This document shows positions 22,097-23,174 of a stretch of 64,000 nucleotides of DNA, one piece after another. The stretch lies in IMG/VR virus record IMGVR_UViG_3300045988_159706. One strand, written 5' to 3'. This DNA is from a virus. Every line of letters begins with the position of its first letter. Within the stretch, counting starts at the first letter, position 1. The notes under the pieces are model-generated. The model saw only the letters and a program-made list of their open reading frames with translations, had not been told where the DNA came from and did no database searches. Both the position numbers and the translations under genes were made by a program.

Positions 22097-22118
22097 AAAT
22101 AAAAATAAATATAATAAT

Positions 22119-22150
22119 ATTTGTATAGTCATCAAATAAGTATTATATTT
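22119..22150 (+). promoter_or_regulatory. Bacteroidota-type promoter inside the intron, upstream of the endonuclease ORF
   Basis: TTTG (22119-22122), a 20-nt spacer, then TAtaTTTG (22143-22150), 21 nt before ATG 22172. Confidence 0.5.
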
Positions 22151-22171
22151 GTATATAAAATAATATATAAT

Positions 22172-22918
22172 ATGATACATCTATTTTCAGAAAAAATTCC
22201 TACAAAATATAATATATCTGGGGTATACTATATTCAAATTGATTCCCATTCATATATAGGAAGTTCAAATCAAATTACTAGAAGACTCAGAGAGCATAAG
22301 AAAAAATTAATACACAATTATCATGATAATAAATTTATGCAAAGAGTCTACAATAAGTACAAAGATGGAGGTAAAATTTACTATCAGATACTTGAAGTTT
22401 GTAATCAAGATGAGCTAAAAACTAGAGAAAAATATTGAATTGATAAACTAAATCCAGATATTAATATTGTTAAGGATCCTACTATGGAGAATACGACTTG
22501 TTTATACAATACTGCTGGATCTAAACCAGTGTATCAATATTCATTAACAGGAGAATATATAGGTGAATTTCCTTCAACTAGTGAAGCAGGAAGACAACTA
22601 AATAAAAATTCTCGTATTATTAGTCAAGCAGCTTCGGATAATCCTATTTTTAAGTCTGCCCACGGTTATCAATGAAGTTATCACAAAGTTGATAGAATGC
22701 CTTGCTATGTTAACAATAGCAGTAAAGCAACAAATAGAAAAGTAGAAATTTTAGATACTGTTTCTGGACTAAGTAAAATTTATAATAGTATTGCGGATGC
22801 AGCAAGAAGTATTTGTGAACCTCAAGATAATTTTAATTCTATTTGTGCTTCTATATCAGTAGTTTGTCATAACAAAGGTAAATTAGTAAAGCATAGGTAC
22901 AAATGTAAATATTTATAA
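22172..22918 (+). CDS. GIY-YIG homing endonuclease (intron-encoded)
   Basis: Track ORFs 22121-22438, 22484-22675 and 22697-22918 share one frame, joined by TGA. Motifs GVYYIQ...YIGSS...RRLREH...REKY-W-IDKLNP and HGYQ-W-SYHKV are I-TevI-like. TAA at 22916-22918. Confidence 0.8.
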
Positions 22919-23174
22919 GTGCGCGAGTATAAAATTCCGTGAATCTGGGAAAATCCTAATAGGACAACCCTAATCCAAGCTTAGTAGAAATACTAAGAAG
23001 GATCAACGACTAGTAGATACTGTCTTAACAGGTGATGCTGAAGAGAATGAACTACCACGAGTGCGGAAGTATAACCTATATGTATCAACATTCAGTGGTT
23101 ATATAAGATATAGTCTGAACTATATAGAAATATATAGAAGTAAAGGATAAAGAGCCTTTACGATAACAATAATG

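Follow-up and report, generated by a model that had tools for sequence, protein, structure and literature searches.

Several described systems come close to the locus reported here. In the td intron of bacteriophage T4 (group IA2), the open reading frame (ORF) of the homing endonuclease I-TevI is looped out of P6. Endonucleases of T4 introns are expressed from middle or late promoters of their own, located directly upstream, and the introns home with co-conversion of flanking exon sequence (PMC2988022). In fungal mitochondria, the IA1 intron cox3-i2 of Hypomyces aurantius holds a LAGLIDADG ORF in its P1 loop (PMC4964425). Within crAss-like phages, Yutin et al. (2021) described group I introns in core genes, including those for an AAA ATPase (ATP_43b), MCP, PolB and primase, and intron ORFs with TGA codons that require suppression (PMC7886860), a report repeated for Zeta-group phages (PMC12386605). 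Here we analyze positions 22097-23174 of the IMG/VR virus record IMGVR_UViG_3300045988_159706, a stretch of 64,000 nucleotides referred to below as the window. We estimate at about 90% the probability that this segment is a group I intron, mobile and self-splicing, which interrupts the gene of a 403-residue AAA+ ATPase in a TGA-recoded crAss-like phage. Features lie on the plus strand unless otherwise stated.

Like the td intron, the ATPase intron is a phage group I intron in a gene of the nucleotide-metabolism or replication module, its endonuclease gene lies in a loop outside the ribozyme and is directly preceded by a putative promoter, a stop in the exon frame stands just inside the intron, and its apparent mode of spread is homing with co-conversion. 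Unlike td, it has its ORF in the P1 loop and lacks P2, the DNA-binding part of its enzyme is of the NUMOD1 type instead of the I-TevI zinc finger and helix-turn-helix, its promoter motif is of the host Bacteroidota type rather than that of a T4 late promoter, no copy of the homing site resembling an operator turned up, and its ORF needs UGA to be read as Trp. The cox3-i2 intron is a precedent for a P1 loop that houses the homing endonuclease gene in a group IA intron, but the Hypomyces element is organellar, carries a LAGLIDADG ORF and has no separate promoter (PMC4964425). The introns of Yutin et al. come from the same phage order, but they were found via endonuclease domains, without ribozyme structures or splice sites, and that study stresses the Delta and Zeta groups while the window is Beta/Steigviridae-like (PMC7886860).

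Exon boundaries and intron-less alleles

A first-pass annotation, made from the sequence alone, had proposed that a second group I intron splits one ATPase gene at Walker B, between exons that are in phase, the first of them ending in ILLLDDYSR. With TGA read as Trp, exon 1 (21674-22096) encodes residues 1-141, including Walker A (GIGKTS) and Walker B (LLLDD), and its translation ends in GCILLLDDYSR with CGT as the last codon (R141). Exon 2 (23175-23963) starts with GCT TTA CCT (ALP) and encodes residues 142-403, a translation of 262 residues beginning ALPMFLQATMELIDRGEY. Both exons are in phase 0 and consist of whole codons, in agreement with the earlier reading.

Thirteen related loci lack the intron and read DDYSR followed by A(L/M)PMF at the junction, as does the predicted splice product (LLLDDYSR followed by ALPMF); the DNA of these alleles encodes LLLDDYSR directly followed by A(L/M)PMFLQ. 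The two halves are thus not normally separate genes. The junction lies between the invariant residues R141 and A142, three residues past D137-D138 of Walker B, which bears out the position given in the first-pass annotation. Furthermore, the joined protein aligns in one stretch over the junction to PHROG 1297 (ATPase) and has 5259 homologues; among the matches listed, most are about 400 residues long and contiguous, including proteins 93% and 84% identical to it. Both exons are under strong purifying selection (dN/dS 0.02 and 0.10).

The 5′ splice site is placed directly after U22096, giving U at position -1, and the 3′ splice site after G23174, the terminal G (omega-G), which is also a G in the variant locus L057. 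(L-numbers such as L001, L006 and L007 are labels of related comparison loci; L014 is OQ221549.1.) Since a U is needed at -1 and a G at the intron 3′ end, 22097-23174 (1078 nt) is the sole choice of boundaries that gives the ATPase protein. The predicted ligated junction is GACTACTCGCGT joined to GCTTTACCTATG. A TAA stop in the exon-1 frame (22100-22102) stands two codons inside the intron, and unspliced RNA would therefore yield a truncated protein. Gene callers annotate two ORFs (21674-22102 and 23172-23963) where this single ATPase gene sits.

The ribozyme core

When the region 22000-23300 was searched alone, Rfam Intron_gpI (RF00028) matched 22897-23137 over the full length of the model (positions 1-253) with 62.2 bits and an E value of 4.5e-15, the gathering score being 50 bits. 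The core helices, derived from the Rfam alignment, a helix list and covariation, extend from 22935 to 23161. They comprise P3 (22935-41/23062-68), P4 (22944, 22947-49/22968-70, 22973), P5 (22954-57/22961-64), P6 (22974-76/23000-02), P6a (22980-86/22991-97), P7 (23008-12/23111-15), P7.1 (23013-16/23052-55), P8 (23070-76/23097-103), P9 (23120-26/23131-37) and P9.1 (23140-46/23155-61). P6a and P9 are capped by GAAA loops. P3, P4, P6a, P7.1, P8, P9 and P9.1 covary, and P6 and P7 are invariant. With P7.1 between P7 and P3′ and without P2, the subtype is phage IA-like.

Covariation was assessed with a hand-drawn structure on seven distinct homologous cores, which came from Bacteroides phage PhiCrAssBcn14 and from IMG/VR by way of a pattern scan. 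Standard pairs are formed in 97.3% of the cells, versus 31-44% when the 3′ partners are slid, and double-sided changes occur in 31 of the 55 pairs; no shuffle out of 500 reached the observed values. Together with the Rfam match, the P3/P7 pseudoknot, the U at -1 and the terminal G, this agrees with the assignment to group I made in the first-pass annotation. Apart from the interruption of a conserved site, nothing speaks for an element of another type (an intein or group II intron, for example), and the sequence speaks against it: exon-frame stops start 3 nt into the insert, its ORF has no Hint or reverse-transcriptase domain, and Intron_gpI is the only significant Rfam family, so that we assign this alternative a negligible probability.

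Compared with the L006-type copy, only 4 of 256 nt of the core differ, versus about 41% of the neighboring synonymous sites (P ~4e-51). The near-identical copy in L008 has two double compensatory changes in P6a. Among relatives the ribozyme is 96-100% identical, even where the endonuclease ORF has decayed.

Two sets of phage introns are related to the core. First, the helicase intron of PhiCrAssBcn14 (OQ221549.1) has a core 75% identical over about 240 nt that covaries with the ATPase intron in P3, P5, P6a, P7.1, P8, P9 and P9.1; its ORF ends a few bases before the core and is preceded by a TTTG-N20-TATCTTTG element. It differs in host gene and ORF, and uses the standard code as far as the annotation shows. 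In this record, a cultured Bacteroides phage, the annotation divides the replicative helicase gene (472-3603) into two fragments and places another endonuclease ORF upstream; one or more unannotated group I introns homologous to the ATPase intron appear to lie in the gene. Secondly, introns of Staphylococcus phages (Twort, K-like) and of Clostridium perfringens phages are 81-94% identical over about 70 nt of J8/7-P7-P9 (~23105-23176); the similarity is confined to this segment, in other hosts, genes and ORFs.

The P9.1 hairpin (23140-23161) has a loop, (G)AUAAAGAG, that is kept in all six cores reaching that far, which suggests a tertiary contact. A similar sequence occurs at the 3′ end of the other group I intron of the window (19779-19808). 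That intron, at 19409-19778 (74.3 bits in Rfam), precedes the ATPase intron, which is indeed the second, as first annotated. It interrupts the ThyX (Thy1) gene and contains no ORF. In relatives, the ThyX intron has a 255-residue ORF within its core (L006, 1962-2729; the ORF is preceded by P3-P5, and P6-P7 stand at its 3′ end), while ThyX is uninterrupted in L002 and L007. Beyond these two introns, no further copy of the core was found in the window.

P1 and the internal guide sequence

The last eight nucleotides of exon 1, ACUCGCGU (22089-22096; ACTCGCGT in DNA), pair over 8 bp with the internal guide sequence GCGCGAGU (22921-22928; GCGCGAGT in DNA), ending in the U22096-G22921 pair, and the pairing on the exon side can be extended to 22088-22097. 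This P1 had been proposed in the first-pass annotation, and the 1078-nt intron offers no other 8-bp candidate, the runners-up reaching 5-6 bp. From the base composition of the window, we expect about 0.03 chance matches of this kind over the whole intron and, for the region no more than 20 nt from P3, about 5e-4; the guide lies 6 nt before P3. A mini-intron from which the ORF was deleted in silico folds with this P1. The stretch between the two strands (22098-22919) thus forms an 822-nt P1 loop that holds the whole endonuclease ORF (22172-22918), as had been suggested, and the ORF ends 2 nt before the guide. The AAGU at 22917-22920, which overlaps the endonuclease stop codon, could pair with GCUU at the start of exon 2 (23175-23178) and is our candidate for P10.

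Codon choice at the junction follows the presence of the intron. Exon 1 ends in TACTCGCGT in 23 of 23 intron-containing loci and in none of the 13 intron-less loci. The former all read TAC TCG CGT at the end of exon 1 and GCT TTA at the start of exon 2; the latter have TCA AGA, AGT CGT or AGC AGA, then GCA CTT or GCC ATG. For the homologous introns of L014, L031 (site 1) and L057 (site 3), P1 pairings were sought by eye and none was convincing, and we therefore do not claim a P1-loop arrangement for them.

These data bear on two further explanations. The two annotated ORFs, with an in-frame ATG at 23172 at the head of the second, could mean that the ribozyme is a relic that no longer splices and that the ATPase is now a pseudogene or two separate polypeptides. 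Such decay is hard to reconcile with a core that is almost invariant while neighboring synonymous sites have diverged (dS ~0.6), with compensatory changes even between close copies, with the purifying selection on both exons, and with the fixation of the P1-pairing exon bases in all 23 loci; we regard it as very improbable. The same ATG, and the location of the endonuclease ORF between the gene halves, would also be seen if a free-standing homing endonuclease gene had split the ATPase without RNA splicing, like mobE in nrdA of Aeromonas phage Aeh1. This scenario is left with a still smaller probability, because the sequence between the ORF and exon 2 contains an entire group I core and because the U-G pair and the terminal G sit exactly on the junction set by the intron-less alleles.

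The endonuclease and TGA recoding

The homing endonuclease ORF (22172-22918, TAA stop included) encodes 248 residues under code 4. Its GIY-YIG domain covers approximately residues 16-98 and is followed by NUMOD1 (118-153) and, around 200-225, by a second segment resembling NUMOD. The family named in the first-pass annotation is supported by Pfam GIY-YIG (PF01541; 33.7 bits, cut-off 22.6), by NUMOD1 (PF07453; 45.7 bits), a separate DNA-binding module, and by the alignment of the N-terminal domain to the homologous catalytic domain of I-TevI (1MK0, E 5e-5). The catalytic columns G17, Y19, Y28, G30, R38, H42 and E86 are invariant among 16 homologues. Against the 88%-identical L006 copy, dN/dS is 0.089 at a dS of 0.59, which indicates that the protein is maintained by selection. 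Decayed forms also exist: in L010 a 5′ deletion removes the -7 element and the start codon, and in L031 and L025 two internal deletions leave 136 residues.

Two in-frame TGA codons, already noticed in the first-pass annotation, occur at 22436-22438 (W89) and 22673-22675 (W168). Both fall on invariant Trp columns, and one aligns with a Trp of I-TevI; likewise, the TGA at 22037-22039 in exon 1 is TGG in relatives. The annotation had further taken these codons to mean that the element is adapted to the recoded genome. The use of TGA as Trp is indeed conserved, but two TGA codons out of two Trp codons is not statistically distinctive, because TGA makes up 28-40% of the Trp codons of the genome.

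TGA is read as Trp throughout the window: 39 ORFs contain 78 TGAs in frame, and every ORF is closed by TAA or TAG, never by TGA. If TGA is counted as a sense codon, stop-free stretches of at least 100 codons add up to 80 kb instead of 57 kb, and ORFs of 1485-2552 residues appear. These giant code 4 ORFs lie on the minus strand, and their orthologues in phage cr111_1 are annotated as RNA polymerase subunits.

A promoter-like element upstream of the endonuclease

The first-pass annotation also gave the endonuclease its own promoter, a TTTG-N20-TATATTTG element. The element exists, with a -33 TTTG at 22120-22123, a 20-nt spacer and a -7 TATATTTG at 22144-22151; it thus spans 22120-22151 and not 22119-22150, and 20 nt, not 21, separate it from the ATG. 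TAnnTTTG has been cited as a Bacteroidetes-specific promoter motif (PMC10309648). The predicted transcript start would be near 22156-22158. A -33 TTTG element spaced about 19-21 nt from the -7 was reportedly described by Bayley et al. in 2000.

That this element is a functional promoter for the endonuclease is probable, judging from the motif, its recurrence in a comparative setting and its local conservation. The full motif, with unrelated spacers, is found 20-39 nt before the start of five other endonuclease ORFs (those of the ThyX intron in L006, the LAGLIDADG ORF of L007, ORF 2121 of L014, the site-1 GIY-YIG ORF of L031 and the site-3 LAGLIDADG ORF of L057), and the -7 half alone precedes two more. 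By comparison, even the -7 half is found at such a position in no more than 6 of the 40 genes of the window. Between the two leader variants, the block 22119-22159 shows 2 differences in 41 positions versus 14 in 34 elsewhere in the leader (Fisher p = 1.5e-4). The enzyme could instead have no promoter and be translated from read-through operon pre-mRNA or from the excised intron RNA, the element being a chance match in AT-rich sequence. Motif counts fit that idea to some extent: TAnnTTTG alone occurs about 50-70 times per strand, near expectation, and the full motif (TTTG-N17-21-TAnnTTTG) is only about twofold enriched in the window (8 versus 3.4 expected), a count reached by 4 of 100 shuffles and weak when taken alone; the comparisons with other ORFs are the stronger evidence. 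Chance accounts poorly for the recurrence before endonuclease ORFs and for the conserved block, and the T4 intron endonucleases offer a precedent for promoters of this kind (PMC2988022). We consider the promoterless explanation possible but doubtful.

Other full matches are found at 1883-1914 and 18712-18740 on the plus strand and at 54131-54100 and 40044-40014 on the minus strand. They occupy gaps between genes or closely precede gene starts, in the correct orientation, and are candidate host-type promoters of phage operons. A search of the literature on crAss promoters with TAnnTTTG returned nothing relevant. A scan for sigma-70-type promoters and terminators was uninformative in this AT-rich region (23 found versus 16 expected), and its sole "terminator" was the reverse complement of P9.1.

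Probable homing and polymorphism

The intron is present or absent among close relatives, and one pair of loci supports homing with co-conversion, the process described in T4 (PMC2988022). Over most of the 12 kb that can be compared, L007 and the window share about 98-99% identity, which falls to 72-92% across 21800-25200. Inside this diverged block, 22058-23251 (1194 nt) is 100% identical; this tract takes in the complete intron with the adjoining 39 nt of exon 1 and 77 nt of exon 2, and mismatches occur every few bases on both sides of it. This is the pattern that co-conversion of flanking exon would leave. In L010, which is more diverged overall, the intron is identical apart from its deletion. 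The 72-92% block, which covers the ATPase gene and the next gene (23965-25017), forms a recombinational mosaic centered on the intron-bearing gene.

Two other sites of the ATPase gene are polymorphic. A second intron site lies between 21892 and 21893 (after D73, EELGD) in L031/L025 and L069-L074; the intron there (L031, 4928-6013) has a core 79% identical to that of 22097-23174 and a 282-residue GIY-YIG ORF running into the core. A third insertion, between 23798 and 23799 (after A349; L057, 12882-13947), measures about 1065 nt in L057, L037 and L039, where it holds a 253-residue LAGLIDADG ORF; the L051 version lacks an ORF and measures 463 nt. The insertion ends in GGATAACAAAATTG and is probably a group I intron.

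Proposed mechanism

We propose the following sequence of events. The operon transcript would carry the intron, whose 256-nt 3′ portion would fold into the P3-P9.1 core, and the last 8 nt of exon 1 would pair with the guide some 825 nt downstream, forming P1 with U22096-G22921 at the cleavage site. Free guanosine would attack at this pair, AAGU 22917-20 would align exon 2 through P10, and G23174 would be used in exon ligation, giving an mRNA that reads LLLDDYSR-ALPMF. The endonuclease, probably transcribed from its own Bacteroidota-type -33/-7 promoter (22120-22151), would be translatable only where UGA means Trp. It would then cut intron-less ATPase alleles in co-infecting relatives, and double-strand-break repair would copy in the intron together with short flanking exon tracts, which would bring along the synonymous codons TCG CGT and GCT TTA that P1 and P10 need. 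The sequence anatomy, the family assignments, the intron-less alleles, the covariation, the signs of selection and the tract resembling co-conversion are direct results of the analysis; splicing, use of the promoter and cleavage by the enzyme are inferred.

Several observations weigh against this reading. The default scan of the whole window with Rfam at gathering thresholds did not report the intron, evidently a loss at the filter stage. P2 is absent and P4 has two internal mismatches. P1 has to close across its 822-nt loop, which may require co-transcriptional help. The window contains no tRNA gene, including suppressor tRNA genes, so that a suppressor must be encoded elsewhere. The full promoter motif is only modestly enriched, as described above, and a search of four alleles for an I-TevI-style operator, that is, a leader resembling the homing site, scored no better than shuffles. 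Finally, a 23-mer spanning the ligated exons, sought as spliced cDNA or precise intron loss, had no match in the metagenome_contigs or viral_contigs collections, an uninformative result since neither is known to hold cDNA.

The same filter loss, in default or larger-search settings of cmscan, was seen on L014, L031 and L057 despite scores above the gathering threshold. Introns of this subtype are therefore likely to be under-annotated in phage genomes, and the unannotated homologous core in the PhiCrAssBcn14 record is an example.

The ATPase and its phage context

The ATPase had been called MoxR-like in the first-pass annotation, a label that is plausible but loose. Only the generic AAA model PF00004 passes its cut-off (23.4 versus 21.2), while the MoxR model AAA_3 (13.9, cut-off 27) and the dynein-related model AAA_5 (15.4, cut-off 22) stay below theirs; some homologues carry a precomputed PF07728 assignment. 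The best matches of solved structure are midasin AAA domains, and G42, G44, K45, T46, D137, D138, R141 and E152 are invariant. Besides the Walker motifs, the joined protein contains YSRA-LPMFLQATMEL, which we take to correspond to the MoxR segment DExxRA...Q.A.L..M. The upstream gene (20566-21687; phrog_1314) overlaps the ATPase start by 14 nt and encodes DUF2201_N and DUF2201, a metallopeptidase-like and a VWA-like domain with a DTSGS motif; the overlapping upstream gene has this architecture in all relatives examined. The motifs, the midasin matches and this pairing with a VWA-domain protein fit the MoxR branch, but the missed AAA_3 and AAA_5 cut-offs do not.

Among deposited phage genomes the ATPase has no close homologue (at most 27% identity), and the host clade was therefore identified via PolA. 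The PolA of the window is 64.6% identical to that of cr111_1, an uncultured phage (Crassvirales, Steigviridae), and 55% identical to that of crAss001. The window and cr111_1 have a gene order in common, namely PolA, thioredoxin, a split ThyX and then the giant RNA polymerase genes on the other strand. The ThyX of cr111_1 is split by an intervening ORF, and this phage lacks the DUF2201-ATPase pair.

Implications

Earlier work has already described group I introns with TGA-containing ORFs in crAss-like phages, P1 loops that house endonuclease genes, promoters inside introns, and co-conversion, and nothing here alters existing knowledge of group I introns. Compared with the literature that we found, two points are somewhat new: the ribozyme and its splice sites are modeled explicitly, and a host-type promoter motif is seen repeatedly upstream of intron endonuclease ORFs in these phages. 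For annotation, the ORFs 21674-22102 and 23172-23963 are one ATPase gene, and standard pipelines (code 11; default Rfam filters) miss both this gene and its intron.

The locus is a clear example, from nature, of intron homing among uncultured gut phages: one ATPase gene has three polymorphic intron sites and a sharply bounded, co-conversion-like tract, with endonuclease ORFs ranging from intact to decayed beside an almost invariant ribozyme. The recurrent Bacteroidota-type motif also provides a testable idea of how these enzymes are expressed. As a tentative generalization, for which we claim no great likelihood, intron-borne endonuclease genes of crAss-like phages might travel as cassettes with their own Bacteroidota -33/-7 promoter into any tolerant peripheral loop, with a UGA suppressor tRNA additionally gating translation in recoded phages. 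Their placement does vary, from the P1 loop in the ATPase intron to the inside of the core in the ThyX intron, and the ORF of L007 may be free-standing. If the generalization is true, homing would be timed by two independent keys, the host RNA polymerase and the recoding of the phage, rather than by the phage transcription programme.

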